Shown here in pieces: positions 9,743-24,647 of a DNA stretch of 24,647 nt. The position numbers and the translations under genes are program-made. The stretch comes from a virus (taxonomy: Duplodnaviria > Caudoviricetes). Location of the stretch: positions 1 to 24,647 of the IMG/VR virus record IMGVR_UViG_3300020252_000104; one strand, given 5' to 3'. The stretch's first letter is position 1. Every line of letters begins with the position of its first letter. The notes below the pieces were generated by a model. It searched no databases. It saw only the letters and a list, made by a program, of their open reading frames with translations, and was not told where the DNA came from.

Positions 9743-10122
9743 CGATGTTCCTAAGTGGGAGTATGGTATCCGGCACTTCAAGTGGGGGAGGGGGAGGACT
9801 CTTATTTGGACAACAAGATAGCTTTACCGTTCATGCTCTGAGAAGAGATGATGATGGGATGCTTAGATATACCAAAGTAAAAACCACAGATACTGAAGTT
9901 GTTGATGTTTCTCATAGACTTGATGGAACTCCTTATCCAGAATTTTTAGAAGGTCTTGATTATGTTGAAGAGACAACTGAAGAGAAAACATATAAAAATA
10001 ATATCTACGATAAATACCAACAGTTCAGGTTTGATTTTAGGAAAATTTCCTACTACATTGATGATGATGGATATCTAACTGTATCTTTTAGTGATCATGA
10101 TTATTCCGCAGGACCAAAATAG
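9739..10122 (+). CDS. Hypothetical phage protein (127 aa)
   Basis: ATGA overlap at 9739-9742 favours this start over track start 9709; acidic/aromatic globular sequence (HALRRDDDGMLRYTK, YQQFRFD..ISYYIDDDGYL). Confidence 0.7.
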   Translation: MTMFLSGSMVSGTSSGGGGGLLFGQQDSFTVHALRRDDDGMLRYTKVKTTDTEVVDVSHRLDGTPYPEFLEGLDYVEETTEEKTYKNNIYDKYQQFRFDFRKISYYIDDDGYLTVSFSDHDYSAGPK

Positions 10123-10138
10123 GAGTTAAAGAAAAGCA

Positions 10139-13100
10139 ATGGCTGAATTTAGACTTGGTAGATTAAAATTCAACTGGAGAGGTGACTGGACTGTTAACAC
10201 CGCTTTTGTCATTGATGACATTGTAAAGTATGGTGCTAATACTTACGTCTGTAAGGCTAATCATACCTCCCCTGGCAACGAAAATCTTTTTTATTCTACA
10301 AATTTTAGTACCTACTGGTCCTTACATACTGAAGGTATTGCTAGTAAAGGTGACTGGCAAGCAAATACTTGGTATAAGATAAATGATATCTATAAGTATG
10401 GAAATACTCAGTATAGAGTAACAACGGGTCATACCTCTGGGGTTTCTTTTGTTAATGCCAACCATGAGAAGTATGTTGAATCATTTAATTATGAGGATAC
10501 TTGGGACGCATCAACACAATATCAAGAAGGTGATGTTGTAGCTTATGGTGGTTATACTTATATTTCTAAGAGTATTAATACTGGTGTAACTCCACACAAT
10601 AATGCAGGAACTTGGGATATTTTAACTACAGGATTTAATGTAGTTGGTGAGTGGAACAGTTCCACTGCATATAAGCAAGGTGATGTAGTCCAATATGGTG
10701 GATATACTTACGTTGCTATTGCTAACACGACTAATGTTGTACCTACAACTACTGCAAGTTGGACATTAGTATCTAAGGGTATTAATTGGAAAGGTAATTG
10801 GAATTCAACAACTCAGTATCAATTAGGTGATGCTGTTAAGAGATTAAGTAATAGTTATATTGGTATTGCAACTGCTGGTAGCCTTAATCAGGATCCTTCT
10901 ACTGATACCAATAGTACTTATTGGAGTCAGTTGGTAGAAGGTGCTGCTAACAATGTTATGACCACCAGTGGTGACATGGTGTTCTATAACACTGGTGCTG
11001 CAAGACTACCTATTGGTAATGATGGTCAAACTTTAGCAGTAAATTCTGCAGGTTTACCTACTTGGGAGAGTAATAGTGTAAGTCATCCAGTTTTCTATGT
11101 AACTGAAGAGGGTAGTGATACTAATGATGGCTCAAACATCAGTAGGTCTTTTGCTTCTGTTAAGCATGCTTGTAGAGAAGTAGGACTTACTACTAGTAGA
11201 GCATCTATCTATGTAAAAGCAGGTACTTATCTAGAGCAACTTCCTATCGTTGTACCTGAAGGTGTATCTATTGTTGGAGATAACTTAAGATCTACAAAGA
11301 TTAGACCAAAGTCTGGTCTTGCTCATCAACAGCATTTAACTCTTGCTACTGCACCATCTTCAGTTTCTTATGGTTCTTCTATCTTTACTGGTGATGGAAC
11401 TAAGTGTGCATCTATTTTAGACTCTTCATACGACGAAAAAACTATTGAAATTCGTTGTATTTCTGGTGGTCTATGGGATACTAATGATACTTGGGAGAAT
11501 GGTGCTAGTGATATTGCGATTACTAATGTAGAAACCAGACCAAACGAAGAAGCTAATATGTTCTTAATGAGCAATGCTTCAATGCTCAAGGACATCTTGA
11601 TGGAAAATCTGACAGGTTTTGAACCTGCAGGTATTGTAACTGCCAGAACAGTGACTATTTCTGAAACTGTAATGACTGGTAGCGATTTCTTCCCCGATCT
11701 GGTAGGAACTACAGTTGTTGGTGCTGGTGTATCAACTGGTACTAAGGTTTCTGGATTTGTGAACACCACTACCGTTGAAGTTGACAAACCACAAACTGTT
11801 AGTTCTGCAACTAGTGTTACTTTTGAAGCACAAGACTATGACCCCAACAACGCTAAGATTAGGGGTGTATTCGTTGCACTAAATCCTGAAAGTAGAATTA
11901 TTAAATCACCTTATGTATCTAACTGTTCTTCATCTTCAGTAAAAGGTATTGGTGCAGTTGTAGATGGTGGTATTCACCGTCAGTTTGTTGATGGATCTGC
12001 AACTCCATCAAACAAATCCATTGTGTTTGACTCCTTTACCAATATTCATGACGAAGGTATTGGTTTCTGGATTACTGATGGTGCTGTTGCTGAAACTGTA
12101 TCTTGTTTCACATATTACTGTCATATTAGTTACGCTGCAACCCGTGGTGGAAGACTTAGATCACTGGTTGGTAACTCTTCTTGGGGTAAGTATGGTGTTG
12201 TTAGTTCTGGATTTAGCCCTCTTGAAGTTTCCAGAGATGGTTTCATCGAAGGACTAGTTCTTCAATATGATGAAAGTACTTTAGCTGGTGGATCTTTCGC
12301 TCCTGGTGAGAGAATTAGAGGTACTACTTCTCAAGCTATAGGTAAGATCAATACCATTCAGGGAGCACTTCAGAATCAAATTTACTACAGTGTAATCACT
12401 GAAGGACCTGTTGGTGTTGGTACTGGATTCGTTGGTGGTGAAACAATCACTGGTCAAACTACTGGTGTTACTGCAACTCTGGCTTCAAACGGTCCAGAAG
12501 CTAACAGAGGTCAAAGTGGATTTGCTCTAGTTCTTTCTGGACTTGGAACTAATCCTCCCGTAGCTACTAACGGTAGTATTGAATTTGAAACTGGTTCTGG
12601 TAATGGTGGATTTAATAGTGCCGATATAACTGGTGCAGATCCATTCACATTTGTTATCAATGGTGTATCTCAGATAGGACCTTCTGGAAGAGGTAGTATC
12701 GTCATTGATAGAGCACAATTACAATCTACTGGAGCTGCTCATACTGGTGGTAATACCACCTTTATCAAATATCCAGTTACATCTGACACTGCTACTTTCC
12801 TTACACCAGCTACTAACTCAGAAACTACTATTCAGGTCAGTAGCATTGCTGGATTTACTCCTGGTGGATATGTGCTATCACCATCTGGTGAGTTGATGAA
12901 GGTTAGTTCTTTCCCAACTGCCAACTCAATCGTTGTAGCTAGAGCACAAGATGGTGCTGGCATTGCATCCTCTTATGCTATTGGCGAAACTATTACTGCC
13001 ATTGGTACTACTAGTTTCCTGAATGCTGTTGAAGTTAATAAGGACTTTACCGGCATTGCTACGCAGTTTAAAGCAACTTCTTCATCAACATTTGGTGGTA

Positions 13101-13822
13101 CTGAGGGTAGTTTCCTTAAGATTGATGATGAATTTGTTAAGGTGACTGGTATTACTACAGATACTTTTGGTACTACTACAGTTACTTTGGTTGAAGAGAA
13201 GGCAGCGAAGGCATTTGATCAGCAGGAAATTAAGATCCGCTACATCTACAGTCAAGCAAGACTAACTGGTCATGACTTCTTGCAAGTTGGTACTGGTGGC
13301 ACTGCTACAACTAACTGGCCAGCAGCACCTACTTATCAACCAGTTCCTACTCAGGAAATTACTGAATCGTTCCCAGGTCGTGTATTCTACGTTTCAACTG
13401 ATAATGAAGGTAACTTCCGTGTTGGTAAGTACTTCCGTGTTAACCAGGCAACTGGTTCTGCAACTTTGAACGCTAGTGCATTCGATCTATCTGGTCTAAC
13501 TTCATTGCGATTGGGTTCTATTGGTGCTCAGTTGGGTGCTCAAATTAATGAGTTCTCTACTGATCCAACAATGTCTCAAAACAGCAATGAGAAAGTTCCA
13601 ACTCAAGCTGCTGTTAGACAATTTGTTGAGTCTCAAGATGCTTCAACTTTACTTGCAGCACAAAATGCTGCACAGTTGGGAATTGCAACTGCTACCGTAC
13701 ACGCTAATGCTGGTGTTAGTACTGCAATATCCCATGCTAATGCTGGAATCGGTACACTCAGAACAGAGAATGCCACTCAGATTCAGGCATCTGAATATTT
13801 TGTTAGCCAGATGATTGGCTGA
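10139..13822 (+). CDS. Large virion structural protein: N-terminal CBM-like aromatic repeats plus pectin-lyase-like beta-helix region
   Basis: AGGAG RBS at 10121-10125; five W-x5-[YF]-x2-[GDN]D-x-x-x-[YR] repeats; VFYVTEEGSDTNDG..FASVKHA, IYVKAGTYLEQLPIVVPEGVSIVGDNLR, SPYVSNCS and HDFLQVGTG motifs typical of cyanophage structural proteins. Confidence 0.8.
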   Translation: MAEFRLGRLKFNWRGDWTVNTAFVIDDIVKYGANTYVCKANHTSPGNENLFYSTNFSTYWSLHTEGIASKGDWQANTWYKINDIYKYGNTQYRVTTGHTSGVSFVNANHEKYVESFNYEDTWDASTQYQEGDVVAYGGYTYISKSINTGVTPHNNAGTWDILTTGFNVVGEWNSSTAYKQGDVVQYGGYTYVAIANTTNVVPTTTASWTLVSKGINWKGNWNSTTQYQLGDAVKRLSNSYIGIATAGSLNQDPSTDTNSTYWSQLVEGAANNVMTTSGDMVFYNTGAARLPIGNDGQTLAVNSAGLPTWESNSVSHPVFYVTEEGSDTNDGSNISRSFASVKHACREVGLTTSRASIYVKAGTYLEQLPIVVPEGVSIVGDNLRSTKIRPKSGLAHQQHLTLATAPSSVSYGSSIFTGDGTKCASILDSSYDEKTIEIRCISGGLWDTNDTWENGASDIAITNVETRPNEEANMFLMSNASMLKDILMENLTGFEPAGIVTARTVTISETVMTGSDFFPDLVGTTVVGAGVSTGTKVSGFVNTTTVEVDKPQTVSSATSVTFEAQDYDPNNAKIRGVFVALNPESRIIKSPYVSNCSSSSVKGIGAVVDGGIHRQFVDGSATPSNKSIVFDSFTNIHDEGIGFWITDGAVAETVSCFTYYCHISYAATRGGRLRSLVGNSSWGKYGVVSSGFSPLEVSRDGFIEGLVLQYDESTLAGGSFAPGERIRGTTSQAIGKINTIQGALQNQIYYSVITEGPVGVGTGFVGGETITGQTTGVTATLASNGPEANRGQSGFALVLSGLGTNPPVATNGSIEFETGSGNGGFNSADITGADPFTFVINGVSQIGPSGRGSIVIDRAQLQSTGAAHTGGNTTFIKYPVTSDTATFLTPATNSETTIQVSSIAGFTPGGYVLSPSGELMKVSSFPTANSIVVARAQDGAGIASSYAIGETITAIGTTSFLNAVEVNKDFTGIATQFKATSSSTFGGTEGSFLKIDDEFVKVTGITTDTFGTTTVTLVEEKAAKAFDQQEIKIRYIYSQARLTGHDFLQVGTGGTATTNWPAAPTYQPVPTQEITESFPGRVFYVSTDNEGNFRVGKYFRVNQATGSATLNASAFDLSGLTSLRLGSIGAQLGAQINEFSTDPTMSQNSNEKVPTQAAVRQFVESQDASTLLAAQNAAQLGIATATVHANAGVSTAISHANAGIGTLRTENATQIQASEYFVSQMIG

Positions 13823-13834
13823 TTTTATTATAAC

Positions 13835-13842
13835 TATAAATA
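13835..13842 (+). promoter_or_regulatory. T4 late promoter TATAAATA
   Basis: Perfect consensus, intergenic before ATG 13869. Confidence 0.8.
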
Positions 13843-13868
13843 ATACAAGACAAAGGAAACTTTAAAAA

Positions 13869-14189
13869 ATGGCATCTGGTATTTTAGGACAATCTGCATT
13901 GTCCGCAACTACAAATACATCAGTGTATACGGTTCCTGCCAGTACTCTTTCTGTTGTTAATGTAAATGTTTTGAATAGATCAACATCGAGTGCTGCTTTA
14001 GTTAGACTTGCTGTTGCTGCGACTGGTACTCCCAATAATGCGGAATATCTTGAATATGATGTATCTATCCCTAAAAGTGGTGTTCTTGAGAGAACTGGTT
14101 TAGCACTGAATGCATCTAAACAAATAGTTGTATATGCTGATACTGCTGATGTTTCCGTAAGTGTTTACGGAATTGAACAGGCAGTTTAA
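13869..14189 (+). CDS. Small beta-rich putative structural protein (106 aa)
   Basis: Late promoter upstream; the domain (SG[IV]L..[VI]YT.P..EY[LI][ED]Y..L.A...G) recurs twice at the N-terminus of the 23218 ORF. Confidence 0.75.
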   Translation: MASGILGQSALSATTNTSVYTVPASTLSVVNVNVLNRSTSSAALVRLAVAATGTPNNAEYLEYDVSIPKSGVLERTGLALNASKQIVVYADTADVSVSVYGIEQAV

Positions 14190-14225: not shown

Positions 14226-15293
14226 ATGGCAGCAGACGTTTTAGCATATAATGCTCTGGCGGAAATAAATCAAGAGTTAAGAGAGCAAGTTGTTGGTCTA
14301 ACAACCGCTATCGTTGATGCGGGTGGTACTTTAGGACAACCACTTCAGTGTGCTCCTGGCGTTGATTTAAGTGAAAGAAAGCGTTGTATTCTTAATAACG
14401 CCGGATCACCTAATGCAGGTATGTGGTGCATGATTCCTAAGTTACCAGCATCTGGTTCCAATTGGACTACTGGGTTTAAGGTTTGTGATACTACATCTTA
14501 TAGGAGATGTGGTGCTACTTGTACTTGGACTGTTCCTAGCGGAACTGATTGTGTAAGATTCCAAGTTTGGGGTGCAGGTGCAGGTTCTGGATCTGGTTGT
14601 TGTTGTGGTGGATCACCTAATGGTGGTCAAGGTGCCTATTCATCTGTAATTATGCCTGTGCAATCGGGTTGGACCTATACTCTCTGTGCCGGTTGTGCAT
14701 ATTGCTGTTACGTAGAAAGAGCACAGTTTGATGTAGATGGTAATTCTAGTTACGTTCAAGGATGTAATCTATGTAACTTCTGTGCTGAAGGTGGTGAAGG
14801 AAATATTTTCTGTGAAGCAAAAACCAGGCAATATTATGCATCCAACATTTTTAGTTGGTGCATATACATGGCAACTTGTATTTGTAATAATGGAACGGAT
14901 TACTGCTTTGAACAAACAACTCCAGGACTAGGGTATCCCCAGGGGAGAAGAGATGCTAGTGGTCAAGCAACTCAAAGTTGTAAGAGGGGTTATGGATGTG
15001 TTTATGAGTGCCCGAATCAAGTATATAATATTCCTGGGCAGTACAGTTACTTTGCAATGGATTATGGAATGGATCAATTCTGTCTGTATCAACCAGGTGC
15101 TTATGGATACAGAACTCAAAGTTGCTGCTGCCACTGTGTGAATAATGAAAACAGTGGATGCTGCTATCAAGCATGTTACTGCCACCAGATGGCACCAGGT
15201 CAAGGTGGTGTTGGATATTCTACCTGTGGTGGTGATACCAGCGGATGTGGTGATGTAGGTAGAATGGGTATGGTTTGTGTATCATACTGTTGA
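14226..15293 (+). CDS. Cys-rich protein, paralogue 1 (adhesin-tip-like framework)
   Basis: About 38 Cys in 355 aa by hand count; CTWTVPSG..RFQVWGAG, CCC, TYTLCAGCAYCCY, SYVQGCNLCNFCAEGG, GRMGMVCVSYC. Confidence 0.8.
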   Translation: MAADVLAYNALAEINQELREQVVGLTTAIVDAGGTLGQPLQCAPGVDLSERKRCILNNAGSPNAGMWCMIPKLPASGSNWTTGFKVCDTTSYRRCGATCTWTVPSGTDCVRFQVWGAGAGSGSGCCCGGSPNGGQGAYSSVIMPVQSGWTYTLCAGCAYCCYVERAQFDVDGNSSYVQGCNLCNFCAEGGEGNIFCEAKTRQYYASNIFSWCIYMATCICNNGTDYCFEQTTPGLGYPQGRRDASGQATQSCKRGYGCVYECPNQVYNIPGQYSYFAMDYGMDQFCLYQPGAYGYRTQSCCCHCVNNENSGCCYQACYCHQMAPGQGGVGYSTCGGDTSGCGDVGRMGMVCVSYC

Positions 15294-16019: not shown

Positions 16020-17084
16020 ATGGATGTATTAGTCTACAGTGCGCTTAACGAACAAGCTGCACTTAAAAAAACTGTTAGAGAAATGCAGCACTGCTTGTTC
16101 TGTTTAACAGACAAGTGTGCTCCCCCAACACCACCACCATCTGCAATTACTCCTGCTTCTTGCTGGCTTGCTCAAGAGAAGAGTATGTGGCATGAAGTCT
16201 GTTGGTGTTGTTGGACATTAATTGATACTGGATCATACAATAATAATACCTGGACTGGTGAGATAAATGTATGTGATGATACTGGATATTATCGTTGCGG
16301 TAGAAGTTGTAACTGGACTGTACCTAGTGGTGTAACAAAAGCTAGATTCCAACTATGGGGTGCTGGTGGTGGTGCAAATAAACCACCTTGCTGCTGTGGA
16401 CATACTAACTTTGGTAATACTGGCGCTTATATGTCAGTTATTATTCCAGTAACTGCAGGACATACTTATACTTTATGTGCTGGTTGTGCGTACTGCTGTT
16501 ATGCATACAGTACATCTGGTGCTAATAGAATGTCTGGATGCCCTTCATATGTTCAAGGATGCCACTTCTGTAATTTCTGCGCAGATGGTGGACGTGGTTC
16601 ATATGCAACATGGAATGGTGATATTGGATCATATTGTGCTTGTAGATTCTCGGGTTATGCTCAACCAGGTTATGGATTCCACATATGTAATACTGGTGGA
16701 GATCTTTGCCATACTGGATATAATACGTGTTGCCATATTAAATATGCATCAGGTGCTGGATATCATGGTGCTATTACGGATATAGATAATCCAACTGAAG
16801 AGAATGTTGTTTATGGTATCCGTGGTTTGTGGCCTTGTCTCTGTAATGATAGTAACAACTATGGTTGGGAGTGTCATGCTCCAATTTACTGCTTCCACGA
16901 CAACACTAGATGTAATCCTTCTTGGTCTTCTGGAAACTGTTGTGGATGCCAGTGCTCTGCCTGGACAAGTAGTTATCTTAGATATCCTGGTGCAGGTGGT
17001 TTCTACTCTCATGCAATGGGTGGTGGTACTGGACTTTATGGGGACTCTGGTAGATTTGGAATGGTTCGTGTATCCTACTGTTAA
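16020..17084 (+). CDS. Cys-rich protein, paralogue 2
   Basis: About 37 Cys in 354 aa by hand count; same conserved blocks as 14226..15293 (CNWTVPSG..RFQLWGAG, CCC, TYTLCAGCAYCCY, SYVQGCHFCNFCADGG, GRFGMVRVSYC). Confidence 0.8.
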   Translation: MDVLVYSALNEQAALKKTVREMQHCLFCLTDKCAPPTPPPSAITPASCWLAQEKSMWHEVCWCCWTLIDTGSYNNNTWTGEINVCDDTGYYRCGRSCNWTVPSGVTKARFQLWGAGGGANKPPCCCGHTNFGNTGAYMSVIIPVTAGHTYTLCAGCAYCCYAYSTSGANRMSGCPSYVQGCHFCNFCADGGRGSYATWNGDIGSYCACRFSGYAQPGYGFHICNTGGDLCHTGYNTCCHIKYASGAGYHGAITDIDNPTEENVVYGIRGLWPCLCNDSNNYGWECHAPIYCFHDNTRCNPSWSSGNCCGCQCSAWTSSYLRYPGAGGFYSHAMGGGTGLYGDSGRFGMVRVSYC

Positions 17085-17117
17085 GTAGTAATTACCACAC
17101 AACTGAATAAAACACTG

Positions 17118-17151
17118 TACCATCGGTTGACTAAATAAATCACCGATGGTA
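17118..17151. repeat. Inverted repeat TACCATCGGT-N14-ACCGATGGTA (hairpin/operator-like)
   Basis: Perfect 10-bp arms at 17118-17127 and 17142-17151, extendable by 2 bp with one bulge; AT-rich loop. Confidence 0.85.
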
Positions 17152-17155
17152 TAAT
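17127..17155 (+). promoter_or_regulatory. Sigma70-type early promoter: TTGACT-17 bp-TATAAT with extended -10 TG
   Basis: -35 TTGACT 17127-17132, TG 17147-17148, -10 TATAAT 17150-17155; RBS GAGGT 17166-17170 precedes ATG 17180. Confidence 0.8.
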
Positions 17156-17179
17156 TTTAGGCATTGAGGTTTGACTTGA

Positions 17180-18307
17180 ATGAATAAAGCGTTTTTCATT
17201 AACGGAGGGGCGGGGAGAGTTCTCTGTTCTATCCCTGCATTAGAGAAGTATGCAGAAACCCACGACGATTTTATTATCGTAGCGGAATCTTGGGGAGAAC
17301 TTTACTTATGTTGTCCCAATCTAAGAGAACATGTTTATCCTATGGGACATAAGGGTCTCTTTGAAGAAAAATTATTAGATAAAAAGATTATATCTCCAGA
17401 ACCATATAGAGTTAATCAATACTTCAATCAAAAATGCAATTTGATTCAAGCATTTGATATTATTATTAATGAACTTGATGAACCTAGAGAACTTCCAAAG
17501 ATTAAACTTGATATTAGCAAAGAAGATCAAATAACTGGTTATAATATTATTACTGAAGTTAGGCAAAATTTAGAAAAAGAAAAGGTTATTGTATTTCAAC
17601 CCTTTGGACAAGGATCAAAAGTATCTGGCAATTTCATATATGATTCTAGCGGTAGAAGTTTTGAAGTTTCTAACGTGATTCAAATAATTGAAAGACTGAA
17701 AGAAAAATATGGAGTTATCTTGATGTCAGATATTGACATCCCTGGTTGGACGCAAATGGGTGTTGCTAGACCAAAAGAAATTGGTTTAAATGGATGGGCT
17801 GGTGTTATCAATGGTGCTGATTATTTCCTAGGATGTGATAGTGTAGGACAGCACTTTGCACATGCTGTTAATACACCAGCTTGTGTTGTTATTGGATCAA
17901 CTTTCCCCGAAAATATTTCATATCCACAGTCTAGTAACTTTAATATTATTGATAATGGTAAAGGTAAGAGGAAGTATAGTCCTATTAGAATTACTTTTAA
18001 TATAGACTGTGATCGAAATAACGAAAGTCTTATGGTGATGGAAGAAAAACAGATTGATGAGATTATTAAGACGATTGATAAAAAACTAAAACCATCTAAA
18101 AGTTTTAGTGGGTCTAAATTGAATGGTATTAAACCTTCTTCAAAAGGTGGACCTTCATCTGCTCCACTAGTAAACTTTAAGCCAGCAACTCCTGGTTCAT
18201 TTAAAAAAGAAAAAACTGCAAAGAAAAAACCAATTGATGAAATAATGGAATTAGAAGTGAGTAAAACAAAAGAACAAACTACTGAAGTTGAAAAAGTAAT
18301 TTCCTGA
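17180..18307 (+). CDS. GT-B glycosyltransferase, family 9 (heptosyltransferase)-like
   Basis: N-terminal FFINGGAGRVLCSIPAL, VIVFQPFG and ADYFLGCDSVGQHFAHAVNTPACVVIGST, resembling the GT9 motif DSGxxHxAxAxxxPxxxxFG; Lys-rich C-terminal tail. Confidence 0.7.
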   Translation: MNKAFFINGGAGRVLCSIPALEKYAETHDDFIIVAESWGELYLCCPNLREHVYPMGHKGLFEEKLLDKKIISPEPYRVNQYFNQKCNLIQAFDIIINELDEPRELPKIKLDISKEDQITGYNIITEVRQNLEKEKVIVFQPFGQGSKVSGNFIYDSSGRSFEVSNVIQIIERLKEKYGVILMSDIDIPGWTQMGVARPKEIGLNGWAGVINGADYFLGCDSVGQHFAHAVNTPACVVIGSTFPENISYPQSSNFNIIDNGKGKRKYSPIRITFNIDCDRNNESLMVMEEKQIDEIIKTIDKKLKPSKSFSGSKLNGIKPSSKGGPSSAPLVNFKPATPGSFKKEKTAKKKPIDEIMELEVSKTKEQTTEVEKVIS

Positions 18308-18318
18308 GGTTTATAGTA

Positions 18319-20064
18319 ATGAGTATTATTGTATCTGTAGCTCGTGGACATAATGCGAGCACCACTCTCCTTGTCAATGGAGAAATTGTTTTTTATCTTG
18401 AAGAAGAGAGACTTTCTAGATTAAAGAGGGACGGAACTCCCTTTATGGGTTTGGCTAAAGTGTTTGATTACGTAGATCATATTGATGATCTAGTCGTTTG
18501 TCATACTCACCGCCAGGGAGCACAAGCCGATTGGACTGGTGAAGACATTTATTTAAATTTTGTGAGAAAGTTCACGAAGAAAAAATTTAAATTTCATACT
18601 ACATTCATTGATACTATCCATCATCAATTACATGCAGAATGTGCATTTGTTAATTCTGGATTTGATGATGCCGCCTGTGTTGTAGTTGATGGTGCAGGAT
18701 CTTTCTTAAAAGGTGAAGGTATTGAAGATACTGTTTTTGAATTTGAATCAATTTTTGAAGCCAAAAAACCATTAAGAGTTAAAACTGCTTTTAGGCATCT
18801 AGGAACTAAATCACCAATTGGAGTTATGGTCAGTGGAAATGACCTTGTCACTGAGTATCCCGGTATTGTTAAAGAATACGAATCAGTAACTAGATATTGT
18901 GGATTCTCTTCAATTGATGCTGGAAAAACCATGGGTCTTTCTCCTTATGGGAAAGAGAATCCGCAGATTCCTGAGATGTTCCCTGGTGGATATGGCAATA
19001 GAGATCTTTTTATACCAGACTATCCTAATGGATCTACTATTAATGTTTCTAGATATAAAATTCTTAGTGATGATGCGCGAGAACACAAGACTGGTGAATA
19101 CACTCAGGTTCAAAAAGATTTAGCATATGCAATTCAAAGGGAGAGTGAAGAACAAGTTTGTAGACTTATTCAACTAGCTGCCACAAAAACAGGTAAAACA
19201 AATATTTGTATATCTGGTGGATATGGATTGAATTGTGTAGCAAATTATAAATTTAAGAAGAGGTTCCCTGAACTCAATATCTATGTTGAACCTATCTCTC
19301 ACGATGGAGGAACATCTATAGGAGGTGCTTATCATCTTTACTACAATAGAACGAAGAAAAAGTTTAGAGATTTACCCAACATTCATCCTCCTAAAGATCT
19401 ATATTATGGTCCAAAATGTGATCCTCAAACATACCTAGATGATATTCCTGAAGATTTAGCTACAGTAACTGATACCTCTTATGCTGATGTTGCAAAACTA
19501 ATTCGTGATGGGAATATTGTAACTATCTTCCAAGGAAAATCTGAAGGAGGTCCTCGCGCACTTGGCAACAGATCTATTCTTTTTGATCCTACTATCAAAG
19601 ATGGTAAGGACATTGTGAACAAAGTAAAGCGTCGTGAATTTTTCCGTCCGTTTGCTTGTTCTGTTCTTGCTGAAAAGGCAAAAGACTGGTTTGATCTTGC
19701 GGGCATGGATGAATCTCCACATATGATGTATGCTGTAGATTGTTTACCTGGCGTTGAAGAGAAAATCCCTTCTGTTATCCATGTTGATGGTACTTGTAGG
19801 ATTCAAACAGTTACAGAGGAACAGAATGATCATTATTATAAATTGATCAGTGCATTTGAAAAACTCTCAGATACTCCTATCTTATTCAATACTTCATTTA
19901 ACCTTGGTGGAGATCCTCTGGTTGAAACTATTGAAGATGCTATCCTTACTTTGAGTAATAGTGAATTGAATTATATGTATCTCCCAGAGATACAAAAACT
20001 TGTCTATGTAGAAACAACTCAAACGGATTACGAACCATGGGAAATTGCATCAACAATAAACTAA
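18319..20064 (+). CDS. Carbamoyltransferase, NodU/CmcH/TobZ family
   Basis: EEERLSRLK, HHQLHA, VVDGAG, GKTMGLSPYG, SGGYGLNCVAN, HDGGTSIG, EGGPRALGNRSIL, VKRREFFRPFA, HVDGTCRIQTV, NTSFNLGGDP. Confidence 0.95.
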   Translation: MSIIVSVARGHNASTTLLVNGEIVFYLEEERLSRLKRDGTPFMGLAKVFDYVDHIDDLVVCHTHRQGAQADWTGEDIYLNFVRKFTKKKFKFHTTFIDTIHHQLHAECAFVNSGFDDAACVVVDGAGSFLKGEGIEDTVFEFESIFEAKKPLRVKTAFRHLGTKSPIGVMVSGNDLVTEYPGIVKEYESVTRYCGFSSIDAGKTMGLSPYGKENPQIPEMFPGGYGNRDLFIPDYPNGSTINVSRYKILSDDAREHKTGEYTQVQKDLAYAIQRESEEQVCRLIQLAATKTGKTNICISGGYGLNCVANYKFKKRFPELNIYVEPISHDGGTSIGGAYHLYYNRTKKKFRDLPNIHPPKDLYYGPKCDPQTYLDDIPEDLATVTDTSYADVAKLIRDGNIVTIFQGKSEGGPRALGNRSILFDPTIKDGKDIVNKVKRREFFRPFACSVLAEKAKDWFDLAGMDESPHMMYAVDCLPGVEEKIPSVIHVDGTCRIQTVTEEQNDHYYKLISAFEKLSDTPILFNTSFNLGGDPLVETIEDAILTLSNSELNYMYLPEIQKLVYVETTQTDYEPWEIASTIN

Positions 20065-20465
20065 TTTGGTGTAATGGAACGTTTGATATACTTCACCCAG
20101 GTCATATAGAGTTATTTAAAACTGCTAAAAATCTGGGCGATAAGTTGATTGTAGCTACGGATAGTGATGAAAAAATCCGAAAGGATAAAGGTGAGCATCG
20201 CCCTATGAATGATTTGTGCTCAAGGTTAGCGATGCTCTCTGCAATTAAGTATATTGATGATGTATTGTTTTTCAATGATAGAAAGCATCTTGAAGACTTA
20301 ATTAAATTATATTCTCCTGATATTATATTATTGGGAAGTGATTGGGAAAATGGTGATGTTGTTGGTAGAGAGTATGCTAAAGAAGTTAGATTCCTTCCAA
20401 GGTATGGTGGATACTCCAGTACTAAAATTATTGAGAAAATAAATGAAAGTTCTTCTACTCGGTGA
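20037..20465 (+). CDS. hldC: Heptose 1-phosphate adenylyltransferase-like (HldE/RfaE domain II; HxGH nucleotidyltransferase)
   Basis: NGTFDILHPGH, GDKLIVATDSD, KGEHRP, GYSSTKII; adjacent to the RfaE kinase domain. Confidence 0.8.
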   Translation: MGNCINNKLIWCNGTFDILHPGHIELFKTAKNLGDKLIVATDSDEKIRKDKGEHRPMNDLCSRLAMLSAIKYIDDVLFFNDRKHLEDLIKLYSPDIILLGSDWENGDVVGREYAKEVRFLPRYGGYSSTKIIEKINESSSTR

Positions 20466-21189
20466 TAGTTGTGAAGATGAATACATTTATGGCAGGTGTG
20501 AGCGTATTAGTCCAGAAGCACCTGTTCCAGTTTTAAAGTATGCAAAGATAAAAACTAAACCTGGAATGGCAGGTAACGTTTGTTTAAATCTTCAAGCATT
20601 TGGTATTGATGTAACTTTTTTAACTAACTCTGAAAGCATAGTTAAAACTAGATTCATTGATGAAAAATCAAATCAACAAATTTTAAGAATGGATAATGAA
20701 GAAAAGGTAAAACCTCTTCTTGTTCCTGTGTCTACTAGTAGTTTTGATGCTGTTGTAATTTCTGATTATAATAAAGGTTATCTGACCTATGATAAGATTG
20801 ATGAAATTGTAGAAAGTTCTTCTTGTCCTGTTTTTATTGATAGTAAAAAAACGATTCTTCCTAATAAAGAAAATTGTTTTGTTAAAATTAACGATTTAGA
20901 ATATGAAAATCTGAGAGAGGATTGTCATATTGATAACTTAATTGTTACTAAGGGATCTGAAGGTTGTGTTTATAAACAAACTCTATATCCTGCAGAAAAA
21001 GTAAATGTTTATGATGTCGTAGGTGCAGGAGATACATTTTTGTCTGCTCTTGTATATGGATACATAACTTGTGGAGATATTGAGTATTCTTTAATGCTTG
21101 GTAATAGAGCTGCTGCTAAAGCAGTTCAACAACCTGGAACTTATATTTTAACTGAGGATGATATAGATGAGATATTGCATAGACATTGA
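20443..21189 (+). CDS. hldA: Heptose 7-phosphate kinase (HldE/RfaE domain I, PfkB family)
   Basis: LLLGD..DEYIYG..RISPEAPVPV, GMAGNV..NL, KTRF, VVISDYNKG, VYDVVGAGDTF. Confidence 0.9.
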   Translation: MKVLLLGDSCEDEYIYGRCERISPEAPVPVLKYAKIKTKPGMAGNVCLNLQAFGIDVTFLTNSESIVKTRFIDEKSNQQILRMDNEEKVKPLLVPVSTSSFDAVVISDYNKGYLTYDKIDEIVESSSCPVFIDSKKTILPNKENCFVKINDLEYENLREDCHIDNLIVTKGSEGCVYKQTLYPAEKVNVYDVVGAGDTFLSALVYGYITCGDIEYSLMLGNRAAAKAVQQPGTYILTEDDIDEILHRH

Positions 21190-21496
21190 TGGAACAATTT
21201 GTAGTCCAACTGTAGGGAGGAACTATCATGAAGCACAACCTTGGTATGATAGAATAGAAAGAGTGAATAAAATGTATGATGAGGGTCATTACATAATCTA
21301 CTTCACTGCGAGAGCGATGGGTAGATTTGCAGGTGATCCTGATGCAGCATCTAAAGCAACTGTATTAATGAAGGATTTAACTACAGAACAGTTAAATACT
21401 TGGGGGTGTAAATACCATGAATTAATTCTTGGTAAACCACACGCCGATCTATTCATCGACGATAAAGGAATTAACTGCGATGACTTCTTCAATTAA
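21167..21496 (+). CDS. Minimal HAD-superfamily phosphatase
   Basis: YCIDIDGTI (DxDGT), FTAR, GKP and FIDDK motifs; lacks the GmhB DRDG and Zn-binding motifs. Confidence 0.8.
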   Translation: MRYCIDIDGTICSPTVGRNYHEAQPWYDRIERVNKMYDEGHYIIYFTARAMGRFAGDPDAASKATVLMKDLTTEQLNTWGCKYHELILGKPHADLFIDDKGINCDDFFN

Positions 21497-21833
21497 ATAT
21501 GTTCCCAAGGGTTGGGGATATGAGAAGTGGATTGTAAACAATGATTCTTACTGCGGAAAACTTTTGTTCATTGAAAAAAATAAAAGATGTTCTTGGCATT
21601 ATCATAAAGTAAAAGATGAGACCTTCTATTTACAGAGTGGTCTCATCTCATTGTACTATGGTTATGATGATGATTTGGCAAAAGCAGAACTTATCGTCCT
21701 CACTCCAGGTGAAAAGTTTCATGTTCCAATTGGATTAAGGCATCAAATGGTTGCTTTGGAAAATGCCGAATTGTTTGAATTTTCAACTCAGCATTTTGAT
21801 GAAGATAGTTATAGAGTAATTAAAGGAGATTAA
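21480..21833 (+). CDS. Cupin protein (sugar-phosphate isomerase-like)
   Basis: VPKGWGYEKWI, CSWHYHKVKDETFY, HVPIGLRHQM cupin metal motifs; ATG 21480 preferred over track start 21429. Confidence 0.8.
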   Translation: MTSSIKYVPKGWGYEKWIVNNDSYCGKLLFIEKNKRCSWHYHKVKDETFYLQSGLISLYYGYDDDLAKAELIVLTPGEKFHVPIGLRHQMVALENAELFEFSTQHFDEDSYRVIKGD

Positions 21834-22414
21834 TGCTTCAAACACTGACCCACAATTATTATTCAATAATTGATCCACCTAACGTGGAGGAATTATTGGA
21901 TGCGGTGGAGAATGCAAATCTTATGGATGAGCAAGAATTTACTTGGACTGATGGTTGTCTTATTGAAGTGGAAAGGTTAAATCTTAATGATAATTTTTTT
22001 AATTTGATAAGACCATCTTTAAGTATATTTTTTGATGAGTTAAATATAGATCCAACAAATCTTGGTGTACATTGCCATGAAGTCTGGAGAAATACTTATA
22101 AGAAAAATTTTTTCCAGGAAATCCATGATCATACTCCTATGACTTTATCTGGAGTTTTATTTCTAACGGATCAAGATCAAGATGATGGTGGTATGTTCTT
22201 CTTTTACAATGAAGGATTTAAAGAAGTTCCTTCAGAATTAAGAGAATTAAATTTTTCTGGGTGTAGGGAATATATTTTTTCCAAAAGGGGTAGAGTATTA
22301 TTATTTCCATCATATATGTTACATGGAGTAACTAGATATAAATCAGATATCCCAAGAAAAACAGTATCATTTAATATAATACTTCGTCCTAACATTCAAG
22401 ATACTGAGGAATAG
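21833..22414 (+). CDS. 2-oxoglutarate/Fe(II)-dependent oxygenase-like protein
   Basis: WRNTY..FQEIHDH..LSGVLF, GRVLLFPSYMLHGV, RKTVSFNI; TAATG coupling to the cupin gene. Confidence 0.85.
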   Translation: MLQTLTHNYYSIIDPPNVEELLDAVENANLMDEQEFTWTDGCLIEVERLNLNDNFFNLIRPSLSIFFDELNIDPTNLGVHCHEVWRNTYKKNFFQEIHDHTPMTLSGVLFLTDQDQDDGGMFFFYNEGFKEVPSELRELNFSGCREYIFSKRGRVLLFPSYMLHGVTRYKSDIPRKTVSFNIILRPNIQDTEE

Positions 22415-23180
22415 TTTTAAATTTATAGTCCCCCCATAGTTTTTTCGCACAAGTGTAATCTTGATATTTACCTTTTAAATGGTCGGGAAATGGAATGTAT
22501 TCTATATCTCCGCCATATTTTTTTATGCAGCATTCTGCAACAAATTGAAAACTAACAGGAGCACTAGTACCTAAATCATAGATACCAGATTTCTTTCCAT
22601 TACCTAATACTAGATCTACAATATCATCAACACAGATAAAATCTCTCAGATAATTTTCAGATCCTTCAAAGAGTTTTAGTTTACCAGTTTCTTTGATTTG
22701 CTTTGTAAACTTACTTACAGGGCTTGCTTGATCTGCTTTGTGATTCTCACCATCACCATACACATTGAAGTACCTGAATCCTTGAATAAGTGGAAACTCC
22801 TTCATGTGATCTTCTACCCAATAATCAATAGTTACTTTGGATAGTGCATAATAATTTAGAGGATTAATAATACCTGTTTGATTTCCATACACAGATGCTG
22901 ATGAAGCATACTTCACAGGTATATTATACTTAGCAGCCATTGTAAATAACCATTGACTAAAGTCAATGTTATATTCATAAATTTTATCTAGATTAGTTTC
23001 GGTTGTTGATGATATTGCACCTTGATGAATGATCATCTCAACATCATTCCAACTATTAAAATAGTTACGAAAGTATGAGCAATCATTTTGCTCCACTCCA
23101 AGAACTTTTTTACCTAATTTTACCAAGGCAGTATCAAATTTTTTACCAATAAAACCTTTGTGACCTGTGAGAATAATCAT
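22389..23180 (-). CDS. hldD: ADP-L-glycero-D-manno-heptose 6-epimerase (extended SDR)
   Basis: MIILTGHKGFIG Rossmann start at 23180, HQGAISSTTE, YASSASVYG, PLNYYALSK, RYFNVYGDGENHK, RDFICVDD, YIPFPDHLKGKYQDYTCA. Confidence 0.9.
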   Translation of the reverse strand: MIILTGHKGFIGKKFDTALVKLGKKVLGVEQNDCSYFRNYFNSWNDVEMIIHQGAISSTTETNLDKIYEYNIDFSQWLFTMAAKYNIPVKYASSASVYGNQTGIINPLNYYALSKVTIDYWVEDHMKEFPLIQGFRYFNVYGDGENHKADQASPVSKFTKQIKETGKLKLFEGSENYLRDFICVDDIVDLVLGNGKKSGIYDLGTSAPVSFQFVAECCIKKYGGDIEYIPFPDHLKGKYQDYTCAKKLWGDYKFKTIPQYLEC

Positions 23181-23187
23181 ATAAATA
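23180..23187 (+). promoter_or_regulatory. T4 late promoter TATAAATA
   Basis: Perfect consensus 30 nt before ATG 23218; overlaps the minus-strand hldD start codon by 1 nt. Confidence 0.75.
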
Positions 23188-23217
23188 CTTAAAATTGTTG
23201 TATTCGGTTGATATAGG

Positions 23218-24647
23218 ATGGCGTTTGGACTTCTTAATTCTATTATACCAGATCCTGGGACGGTACTCAACCTTTACACTGGTCCTGCAGGAAAATTGAC
23301 TGTAGGTAAGATAACTATTAATAGTAAAAATTATAATCCTTCTAGAATTCAGATTGGATATAAAGATGGTAATAATATAAGATATTTTGAATATAATAGA
23401 TCTATTAAATACGGAGAAACAATTCAAACTGAAGATATTTATTTGGGTGCGGGGCAAGAATTGGTAGTTAAATCTACAGAAACAGATGTAAACTTTTTAT
23501 TTTATGGGCAAACACAGAGTGATACAGTAAATCCAGTAAGGTCTGGCGTACTCAATCATGTTTCTTCAGTTGGTACAACTAAACAGATAATTTATACCGC
23601 ACCTCAAGGATCTCAAACTGAATCTACAATTTCAATTGTTAATTTAGGTCCTGATGTATCTACTGTGAAGTTAGGCATCTCTAATGCAGGATTAAATGAT
23701 TTTGACTCAACTGAATATATTGATTATGGTTTTGATATTGGACCTGGTCAGACATATACTAGACCTGGAATTAAATTAAGTGCCGGTCAATCTTTGATAG
23801 GATTCTCAAATACTGGATCTAATATATCTTTCCTTTCTCATGGTATACTATACTATCAGGCAACTGGTTTACCCACTAGTGATGATCTGATGGTTCTTGG
23901 TGATTCAAGAATCACTGGTAATCTAGGTATTGGTAGAACAGCAGAATATAAGTTAGATGTTCTGGGTGATACTAGAATCTCTGGAGTTACTACAATAGGA
24001 GATAATCTAACTGTTGGTGGTGGATTGGAAGTTGTGGGAATGTCTACATTCTCAGGCATCTCCGTTAATTCTGGAAATATTAGTATTACTAGTATCGATA
24101 CTAATAGACTGTTTCAGACTGGTATTGCAACTTTTAGAGGTAGTACTATAATTGACGGTGAGGAAGCAAAATTCCAAACAAGTTATTTCAGATCACTGGC
24201 AAATCAAATAGTATTGGGTTACAGTACCTCCACCACTTTTAGGGGTTATGGTACTGCTAATACTAATGTTGTTAATATGAATCAAACATGGATGACATCT
24301 GATGAGTTAAGTAATACTAAAGATTTACTTGATGGTGCTACACTTTCTCTTGTAAGTAGTGAAAATGGATTACTGACATTAGACTCTGGAACAACTATTC
24401 AGTCAAAAACTTTTGATTCTGAGGGTAAGTTAGCTTCTCTTACACTTTCAAATAATTTTGGTGGATCAGGTTTTGGTATTTGTACTTTCTCAATAAATGG
24501 ACCCGCAGATGCGAGTGCAAATAATGGTGGTATAGTGATTAAAGGGACATCTGATAAACATTTTCTCTATCGACAATCATCAGGTTGCTTTGAGTCTTCA
24601 GATGGTATAAAAATTAATACTGGAGATTTAAAATTTTCCGGTGGAGG
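23218..24647 (+). CDS. Putative tail fibre/structural protein, 5' part (at least 476 aa; absent from the ORF track)
   Basis: Translated by hand: MAFGLLNSIIPDPG... open to the window end; two tandem copies of the 13869 domain, then GNLGIGRTAEYKLDVLGDTRISGVTT resembling the 8930 protein. Confidence 0.85.
   Translation, partial: MAFGLLNSIIPDPGTVLNLYTGPAGKLTVGKITINSKNYNPSRIQIGYKDGNNIRYFEYNRSIKYGETIQTEDIYLGAGQELVVKSTETDVNFLFYGQTQSDTVNPVRSGVLNHVSSVGTTKQIIYTAPQGSQTESTISIVNLGPDVSTVKLGISNAGLNDFDSTEYIDYGFDIGPGQTYTRPGIKLSAGQSLIGFSNTGSNISFLSHGILYYQATGLPTSDDLMVLGDSRITGNLGIGRTAEYKLDVLGDTRISGVTTIGDNLTVGGGLEVVGMSTFSGISVNSGNISITSIDTNRLFQTGIATFRGSTIIDGEEAKFQTSYFRSLANQIVLGYSTSTTFRGYGTANTNVVNMNQTWMTSDELSNTKDLLDGATLSLVSSENGLLTLDSGTTIQSKTFDSEGKLASLTLSNNFGGSGFGICTFSINGPADASANNGGIVIKGTSDKHFLYRQSSGCFESSDGIKINTGDLKFSGG

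Follow-up and report, generated by a model that had tools for sequence, protein, structure and literature searches.

A cupin and a minimal HAD phosphatase as probable replacements of GmhA and GmhB in a cyanophage heptose cassette

The window analysed here, a stretch of 24,647 nucleotides of viral DNA (IMG/VR record IMGVR_UViG_3300020252_000104), carries a sugar cassette that is predicted to make a nucleotide-activated heptose (NDP-heptose) from the sedoheptulose-7-phosphate (S7P) of the host. In this cassette the isomerase GmhA and the phosphatase GmhB of the known heptose pathway would be replaced, jointly, by a cupin of 117 residues and a HAD protein of 109 residues, a reading to which a probability of about 0.78 is given on comparative sequence analysis. 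Taken singly, the cupin very probably performs the GmhA step and the HAD protein probably the GmhB step, the support for the latter being somewhat weaker. An earlier note on this DNA had proposed both replacements, and both are upheld: the cupin by the retained active site of D-lyxose isomerase, by fusions to HldE, HldD and HAD parts and by near exclusion between it and gmhA, seen in two phyla and among viruses, the HAD protein by its AfhF-like family and its alternation with GmhB. Double non-orthologous displacement in a known heptose pathway thus appears real and well supported by comparative genomics.

Among proteins of known structure, the cupin is closest to the D-lyxose isomerases. A profile search of the PDB placed these first (2y0o, E 3e-12; 7nzo, E 1.4e-11), the next match following at 3e-8, and the AlphaFold model (predicted local distance difference test, pLDDT, 95.5) is an all-beta cupin whose best Foldseek match, 7nzp, is a lyxose isomerase with fructose. 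The metal site of three histidines and one glutamate is present in the barrel (H40, H42, H88 and E47). For the D-lyxose isomerase of Thermofilum (TsLI), the available part of PMC8378251 names eight residues that bind the sugar and Mn (K62, H75, H77, K86, E88, H143, E156 and D163) and puts forward a mechanism by way of a cis-enediol. Seven of these eight are identical in the phage cupin (K27, H40, H42, K45, E47, H88 and E100, counted by hand along the alignments with a 24-residue tag offset); the eighth, D163, falls on D107 in the pairwise alignment, and the conserved aspartate is D109. Across an alignment of 50 sequences, G13, E15, Y24, C25, K27, H42, K45, E47, G54, H88, E100, S102 and D109 are invariant. 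The conversion of S7P to D-glycero-D-manno-heptose-7-phosphate is the seven-carbon homologue of that of fructose to mannose, with the same manno configuration.

The cupin belongs to a distinct subfamily. A KxWGxE start is found in 198 of 231 collected domains, the other 33 being lyxose-isomerase-like, and K10, W12, S38, H105 and R112 are 98-100% conserved in the former and 0-15% in the latter; the conservation of Y24-C25, K27, H40, H42, K45 and E47 in the collected domains is partly built in by the DNA search pattern. FastTree analysis of 90 domains, a short alignment with modest support, gathered the KxWG proteins in one clade (support 0.95) that includes the phage proteins. With 117 residues against 160-250 in PF07385, the cupin scores 16.9 bits against that family's cut-off of 20.8; it has no match to PF01050 (type II phosphomannose isomerase, PMI) at E 0.01, and neither cupin nor HAD protein matches the SIS-fold signatures TIGR00441 and PF13580. 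Two database labels for the cupin were rejected: 'cysteine dioxygenase', which stems from phrog_7851, finds no cysteine dioxygenase Pfam match and is contradicted by the fold and the invariant E47, and 'putative nucleotidyltransferase' is contradicted by motifs and fold.

In the HAD protein, D6-x-D8, T47, K90 and D99 are invariant across 36 aligned relatives, and motifs I-IV (D6/D8, T47, K90, D94-D99) are conserved at 0.99-1.0 in 89 relatives. Its PDB matches were 9iqw (E 1.7e-11) and 1xpj (E 1.8e-7), with full-length profile matches at E 1.2e-19 and 3.5e-12, and TIGR01689 matched at E 1.2e-8 and 35 bits, far under its cut-off of 162. No match was found to the GmhB signatures TIGR00213 and TIGR01656 (HAD-IIIA, ~180 residues), and BLAST to a GmhB gave E 0.83. 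We take 9IQW to be AfhF itself, purely as a guess, the entry title being just 'Capsule biosynthesis protein'. Homologues ~38-40% identical in T4-like enterophages include proteins labelled RB69ORF051c, and the available part of PMC13326640 reports that the AfhF of HY126, an analogue of RB69 gp51, takes one phosphate off arabinofuranose-1,5-bisphosphate and leaves the 1-phosphate. The label 'phosphoheptose isomerase', given to the HAD protein in RefSeq and PHROGs, is contradicted by its motifs and fold; in the accessible portion of PMC9238414 a 'phosphoheptose isomerase' serves as a viral marker.

The kinase, nucleotidyltransferase and epimerase named by the earlier note are indeed present. Their best NCBIfam families are HldE domain I for the kinase (TIGR02198, E 8.4e-44, against 6.7e-11 for ribokinase), HldE domain II for the nucleotidyltransferase (TIGR02199, E 1.9e-33) and HldD for the epimerase (TIGR02197, E 3.2e-60, against 3.3e-7 for GalE). 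The GAGD motif of the kinase is conserved in 75 relatives, and the nucleotidyltransferase shows the motifs HxGH and, near its C terminus, GYSST. The first gene of the cassette encodes a member of an unannotated phage family (phrog_8954) whose AlphaFold model (pLDDT 79.7) finds as top Foldseek matches WaaF 1psw, the GT9 protein 3tov, WaaC and TibC, at E 3e-9 to 9e-8; a PDB sequence search with the GT9-like alignment found nothing, so that the match comes from the fold search alone. Together, HldD and a GT9-fold enzyme in one cassette point to a heptose product.

Neither a SIS-fold GmhA nor a canonical GmhB was found in the window by a six-frame scan with purpose-built GmhA and GmhB profiles, which agrees with the earlier note. 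Because the genome record consists of this fragment alone, genes beyond the window could be sought in relatives only. Viral cupin loci were examined as the best 80 of ~680 viral stretches; several of them end at the cupin, and one cupin open reading frame (ORF) was missed by the ORF caller. These 80 carry a small HAD gene in 75 cases, an HldE-type kinase in 71, a nucleotidyltransferase in 69 and a GT9-like gene in 34. The HAD gene is directly upstream of the cupin in 68, and the exact order nucleotidyltransferase-kinase-HAD-cupin occurs in 38. In L073, L075, SynMITS9220M01 and Bellamy the cupin is instead accompanied by an HddA-like kinase and an HddC-like transferase, and it lies between two such genes in L073 and L075, with HAD, and in L083, without it. 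Found with HldE-type as well as HddA/HddC-type partners, the cupin goes along with either heptose route, and the steps that the two routes have in common are those of GmhA and GmhB.

No gmhA (TIGR00441, E 0.01) was detected in 50 whole viral contigs, taken from the same 80 loci, mostly the longer ones, nearly all of them fragments. Complete cyanophage isolates with the cupin lacked gmhA in 10 of 11 cases, and the GmhB family was missing from all nine complete phages searched among them. Conversely, 80 viral gmhA loci (the best 80 of 158) held GmhB in 13 cases, a small HAD gene in one and both in none, and no cupin was seen in the 20 with an HldE-type kinase. Eight further loci, found through the nucleotidyltransferase and all close relatives, each have kinase, HAD and cupin and no gmhA. 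Viral scans with a single cellular GmhA (one locus) or a cellular kinase (none) used queries that were too narrow.

Fusions of the cupin point in the same direction. Among 36 longer proteins chosen from 150 listed relatives, the cupin is joined to an HldE kinase in three, to an HldE nucleotidyltransferase in three (one weak) and to a small HAD in one (P0134), with single cases of NUDIX or nucleotide-kinase domains; genome loci added fusions with the kinase (L114, L120), HldD (L132) and HAD (L152). Cellular loci were collected by a DNA pattern (120 of ~640, 80 with flanks), which also caught lyxose-isomerase-like proteins, split off by KxWGxE. An HldE part lies nearby in 16 of 59 cellular KxWG loci and in 0 of 19 lyxose-isomerase-like loci. 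The 16 contain GmhB in seven cases, a small HAD in four, both in none and a SIS gene in one; in seven loci from DPANN, Candidate Phyla Radiation (CPR) and archaeal genomes, cupin, kinase and nucleotidyltransferase stand with a canonical GmhB and no gmhA in the locus. A gmhA-like gene was found in 7 of 37 KxWG genomes against 9 of 12 lyxose-like genomes (P 7e-4), 50 genomes having been taken and one dropped for want of a cupin match.

The mutual exclusivity of cupin and gmhA, raised in the earlier note, was borne out as near exclusion in Planctomycetota, Nanoarchaeota and viral loci. For Planctomycetota, the phylum of G096, 281 genomes were sampled, 245 of them with an HldE kinase; at a cupin cut-off of E 1e-30 these had both genes in 1 case, cupin only in 24, gmhA only in 200 and neither in 20 (Fisher P 4e-20, uncorrected for kinship). 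The same four counts were 3/25/198/19 at 1e-20 and 6/26/195/18 at 1e-12. The planctomycete cupins fall at several places in the tree, which argues for more than one event, but the P values ignore kinship. In Nanoarchaeota (281 genomes from the phylum of G054, Woesearchaeota; 70 with the kinase), both genes were found in 2, cupin only in 16, one of them G079, gmhA only in 39 and neither in 13 (P 2.5e-6). The kinase is present in 18 of 19 nanoarchaeal cupin genomes against 70 of 281 overall (P 3e-11), and within 6 kb of the kinase there is a cupin in 11, gmhA in 34, both in none and neither in 25. Gene absences in these counts are uncertain, because all sampled genomes are metagenome-assembled genomes (MAGs). 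Among the controls, Caulobacter vibrioides and Synechococcus elongatus, the latter the sole cyanobacterium of the set, have an HldE kinase match at E <1e-60 and no gmhA at E 0.01.

The following route is read from the genes, their order, family relations, conserved residues, fusions and distribution; its substrates, product and acceptor are predicted. The metal-bound cupin would convert S7P into D-glycero-D-manno-heptose 7-phosphate by way of a cis-enediol, the intermediate put forward for D-lyxose isomerase, with H40, H42, E47 and H88 as metal ligands, K27, K45, E100 and D109 as sugar ligands, and the subfamily-specific K10, W12, S38, H105 and R112 as a candidate phosphate pocket. The HldE-type kinase would then form the 1,7-bisphosphate, from which the HAD protein would strip the 7-phosphate; the HldC-type enzyme would add AMP (or CMP or UMP), and HldD would epimerise C6. 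Finally, the GT9/TibC-fold enzyme may transfer the heptose to an acceptor, either a glycan of the host surface or a protein of the virion, and carbamoylation would perhaps follow. The earlier note had pointed to S7P as abundant in the cyanobacterial Calvin/pentose phosphate pathway; it had missed that the DNA is that of a phage, which would draw on host S7P, and that in some lineages the cupin may double as a PMI.

Several findings, here and among the alternatives below, weigh against the proposed replacements. The HldE- and HldD-like phage proteins match their families best by wide margins, yet all three lie under the curated cut-offs. The modelled cupin fold is not diagnostic by itself: in a narrow VIA-align search, CapF, Pac13, KdgF, Thermococcus PMI and lyxose isomerase tied within ~1 Z unit, identity being highest for lyxose isomerase (32%). 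The exception among the 11 isolates, SynMITS9220M01, carries a SIS gene that belongs to a second kinase operon (the available part of PMC7378029 lists heptose genes in this phage), and two of the 80 viral gmhA loci contain the cupin. In L061, a fragment of 82 kb, the cupin occurs without HldE parts; in L059 these lie farther along the contig. No HldE part was found near the cupin in 43 of the 59 cellular KxWG loci, and gmhA coexists with it in the seven KxWG genomes, several of these gmhA genes lying in separate GHMP-kinase clusters. Planctomycete cupins are unlinked to hldE and have ddl, permease or acyl-CoA dehydrogenase genes as neighbours. Finally, hldE genomes with neither gmhA nor cupin (20 planctomycete, G108, G119, G143 and others; 13 nanoarchaeal, G389, G446, G458 and others) possibly reflect incomplete assemblies or a third isomerase.

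It is unlikely, though of the alternatives the best placed, that the cupin replaces GmhA and the HAD protein serves another substrate, a host phosphatase or kinase route supplying heptose-1-phosphate. The loss of cellular GmhB is often tolerated, members of the HAD family (390 records) are common in T4-like phages that have no heptose genes, and second HAD copies are located in other sugar modules. L063, one of the 80 viral cupin loci, carries a GmhB-like gene ~9 kb away besides its small HAD, and the HddA-type loci L083 and Bellamy have the cupin without an adjacent HAD. Against this stand the position of the HAD gene directly before the cupin in most viral loci, the fusions in P0134 and L152, the lack of any co-occurrence of HAD and GmhB in the 16 cellular cupin loci with an HldE part and in the 80 viral loci with gmhA, and the exactly parallel step reported for the relative AfhF in the available text of PMC13326640.

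Less probable still is a cupin that is mainly a PMI, converting fructose-6-phosphate to mannose-6-phosphate for an NDP-hexose, or one equally active on six and seven carbons. Some relatives of the cupin have weak PF01050 matches, the PMI of Thermococcus belongs to the structural matches that tie, and the N-terminal KxWG and C-terminal D-x-x-R resemble the motif of type II PMI. In Binatia-like genomes (for example L088 and L097, cupin at ~9800-10280), the cupin directly precedes an epimerase-family gene, which scored above cut-off as GDP-mannose 4,6-dehydratase (gmd) in the two cases tested, and other PMIs are mostly absent: type I in 1 of 9 genomes, type II in 0 of 9 and phosphoglucose isomerase/PMI in 0 of 5. 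An HldE kinase is present in all nine of these genomes, and gmhA was not found in seven. The simplest reading of the Binatia-like cupin is a dual-substrate (PMI/GmhA) enzyme; it may be, judging from gene context, that the cupin also acts on hexose phosphates in some lineages, and a side activity of this kind is compatible with replacement of GmhA. As the principal function it is opposed by the fusion partners, which are HldE and HldD parts, by the heptosyltransferase-like fold of the cassette transferase, and by HldD itself, which needs a C6 stereocentre that hexoses do not have. Exclusion, moreover, concerns gmhA and not type I PMI, which among planctomycetes is present in 19 of 25 genomes with the cupin and 18 of 25 with gmhA (type II: 0 of 25 and 3 of 25).

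It is improbable that the cupin is an accessory anomerase or an NDP-heptose epimerase/isomerase of the RmlC, CapF or FdtA kind, with heptose-7-phosphate coming from the host or another enzyme. In the VIA-align comparison the cupin domain of CapF ranks first, in a tie (Z 15.7), cupin and gmhA occur together in some genomes, and the 33 hldE genomes with neither imply a further route or missing data. An accessory enzyme, however, would accompany gmhA rather than exclude it, the residue set of an aldose-ketose isomerase is fully kept, and the one control cyanobacterium has no gmhA match. A shift of the whole cassette to another sugar (xylulose-5-phosphate to lyxose-5-phosphate, for example, or a different heptose isomer) is very improbable: the closest solved cupin relatives are pentose isomerases, the phage kinase is ~60 residues shorter than HldE domain I, its partners are all below cut-off and many loci hold further sugar-modifying genes, but cellular partners of the same cupin clade lie at or near the HldE, HldD and GmhB cut-offs and HldD requires a heptose.

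With the cupin and HAD protein as GmhA and GmhB replacements, we lean, with some reserve, towards a broader proposal. The KxWGxE cupins would constitute a second, unrelated family of S7P isomerases in cyanophages, other viruses, Nanoarchaeota, Patescibacteria, Binatia and part of Planctomycetota, the Binatia enzyme feeding both heptose and GDP-mannose pools. With the mini HAD they would form a self-sufficient viral NDP-heptose pathway, filling in the phosphatase reported missing in viruses, and cyanophages would attach heptose to a target of the host or of the virion in heptose-free cells. Literature searches, covering few subscription journals, turned up no paper that describes a cupin as an S7P isomerase, and GmhA has been treated as the entry enzyme and marker of all manno-heptose pathways. 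If the proposal holds, a cupin analogue would explain hldE genomes without gmhA (24 of 44 planctomycetes and 16 of 29 nanoarchaea sampled), and a wider set of organisms would be predicted to make NDP-heptoses. The mini HAD would likewise explain the cross-kingdom survey of Tang et al. (2024), in which, according to the accessible part of a commentary (PMC11461863), heptose phosphatase is absent in viruses and eukaryotes. Propagated misannotations would also be corrected, of the HAD protein as 'phosphoheptose isomerase' and of the cupin as 'cysteine dioxygenase' or 'nucleotidyltransferase'.

The window itself is a fragment of a T4-like cyanomyophage, in which tail-fibre and virion genes are followed by the sugar cassette (Table 1). 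Its gene order matches genes 299-315 of Prochlorococcus phage P-SSM2, and the closest annotated DNA is that of P-SSM2/P-SSM5 (72.7% identity over 79% of 17000-23300). The HAD and cupin ORFs lie where the earlier note had placed them, the cupin counted from its ATG, in overlapping frames: kinase and HAD share 23 nt, HAD and cupin 17 nt. Purine-rich words like those of ribosome-binding sites, GAGGA and AAGGA, precede the HAD and cupin starts. Divergence from close relatives is mostly silent, with 31-44 silent against 15-19 changed codons in the cupin (7 loci) and 24-26 against 2-3 in the HAD gene (2 loci), so that both are real genes under purifying selection. The oxygenase gene after the cupin is missing from this position in many relatives.

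Table 1. Features of the cassette region and the evidence for each
Feature	Coordinates	Strand	Evidence
Sigma-70-type promoter-like site TTGACT-17-TATAAT, extended -10	17127..17155	+	Top-scoring; head of rightward gene run; function inferred
GT9/TibC-fold glycosyltransferase, likely heptosyltransferase (NDP-heptose consumer)	17180..18307	+	Weak PF01075 and RfaQ matches below cut-off; fold match
NodU/CmcH-type carbamoyltransferase	18319..20064	+	PF16861 and PF02543 above cut-off; phrog_1601
HldE domain II-like (HldC) heptose-1-phosphate nucleotidyltransferase	20037..20465	+	TIGR02199; start codon uncertain
HldE domain I-like (HldA) heptose-7-phosphate kinase, shortened, 248 aa	20443..21189	+	TIGR02198
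Cap-less mini HAD phosphatase, EcbF/BcbF-AfhF-like, 109 aa; likely GmhB replacement	21167..21496	+	Motifs, PDB matches
Monocupin (KxWGxE subfamily), 117 aa, D-lyxose isomerase relative; likely S7P isomerase replacing GmhA	21480..21833	+	Profile, fold, gmhA exclusion
2-oxoglutarate (2OG)-Fe(II) oxygenase, variable cassette passenger	21833..22414	+	PF13759 above cut-off
HldD/GmhD-like ADP-heptose 6-epimerase, convergent on cassette	22389..23180	-	TIGR02197
Sigma-70-type promoter-like site TTGAGT-17-TATAAT	23242..23270	-	Second-ranked; upstream of epimerase; function inferred

Promoter-like sites in 16900-23400 are at chance level (33 found, 29.8 expected), as are the late-promoter words TATAAATA (3 against 2.9). 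The pattern of the top-scoring site recurs immediately before the orthologous gene in P-SSM2, L004, L038 and L339, and 5 of 346 loci match it. Host-type promoter-like sites head both converging units; they hint at early expression, and thus either at a target on the host surface or at precursors being made early. Glycosylation of the virion is hinted at by the location amid tail-fibre genes. Contigs of one metatranscriptome span the whole cassette and four other RNA runs are nearly without cassette words, data that are evidence neither way, since contigs cannot show transcription. According to the available part of PMC4390846, cyanobacterial lipopolysaccharide (LPS) is without heptose; modification of the host O-chain is favoured for similar pelagimyophage genes in the corresponding part of PMC7029224, and Tang et al., in their own summary (PMC11573728), count what heptose does in viruses among the questions still to be answered.

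Other sugar genes were seen around related cupins. Eight loci (L043, L044, L055, L062, L066, L074, L076 and L082) carry another conserved cyanophage module, at ~10350-14000 in the IMG/VR loci, of an NTP-transferase fusion, GT61, a class II aldolase and a second HAD copy. L083 (17574-20650) and L121 (9258-12343) have, beside the cupin module, a module of GHMP kinase, SIS isomerase, HAD/nucleotidyltransferase fusion and epimerase, in which the small HAD is fused to a cytidylyltransferase-like domain. In L059 and L061 (4400-13400), from large viruses (CheckV implies ~500 kb), the cupin lies inside NeuB/NeuA/aminotransferase clusters. The contigs L107, L121 and L124 come from archaeal and actinobacterial MAGs, their cupins group with the phage clade, and they are probably phage DNA in the bins. 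Elsewhere in the window, 14226-15293 and 16020-17084 encode paralogous Cys-rich, Gly-rich proteins of 355 and 354 residues (phrog_35878) with a 224-residue gene product between them, an arrangement conserved in P-SSM2 (304-306); they are possibly metal-binding tail-tip proteins or glycosylation targets. A subtilase of 620 residues (Peptidase_S8, E 6e-27) is encoded at 1112-2974 amid the tail-fibre genes.

In comparison with known systems, the ADP-heptose pathway (HldE/HldD) is the closest to the phage cassette, whose kinase, nucleotidyltransferase, 6-epimerase and GT9-fold transferase match best to its families, and the cassette parallels the four-step logic of PMC11573728. It differs from that pathway in having a cupin and a 109-residue HAD protein instead of a SIS-fold GmhA and a HAD-IIIA GmhB, and in being carried by a phage of hosts with heptose-free LPS. 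With GmhA (TIGR00441) the cupin would share reaction and place in the pathway, and the two alternate across genomes; they are unrelated in fold and sequence, so that the cupin is an analogue and not a family member. D-lyxose/D-mannose isomerases (7NZO, 2Y0O, 3KMH) provide its best sequence and Foldseek matches and share most of its active site, yet the phage cupin is ~60 residues shorter, stands in its own clade with five residues that its lyxose-isomerase-like neighbours lack, and would act on a phosphorylated heptulose in a biosynthetic context. The type II or archaeal cupin PMI (PF01050; 7ZVM, 7ZVY) is likewise a monocupin with a sugar-phosphate substrate and a manno-configured product (profile E ~2e-4, Z ~15), but the window cupin falls outside PF01050 at E 0.01 and PMI is not displaced in planctomycetes. 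For the HAD protein, the mini HADs AfhF, RB69 gp51 and EcbF-BcbF (1XPJ, 9IQW) hold the sole significant PDB matches; the phage protein differs in being tied to heptose genes, with heptose-1,7-bisphosphate as its predicted substrate. The isomerase-kinase-phosphatase-transferase logic of phage arabinose activation, as laid out in the available part of PMC13326640, is the same as that of the cassette described here.

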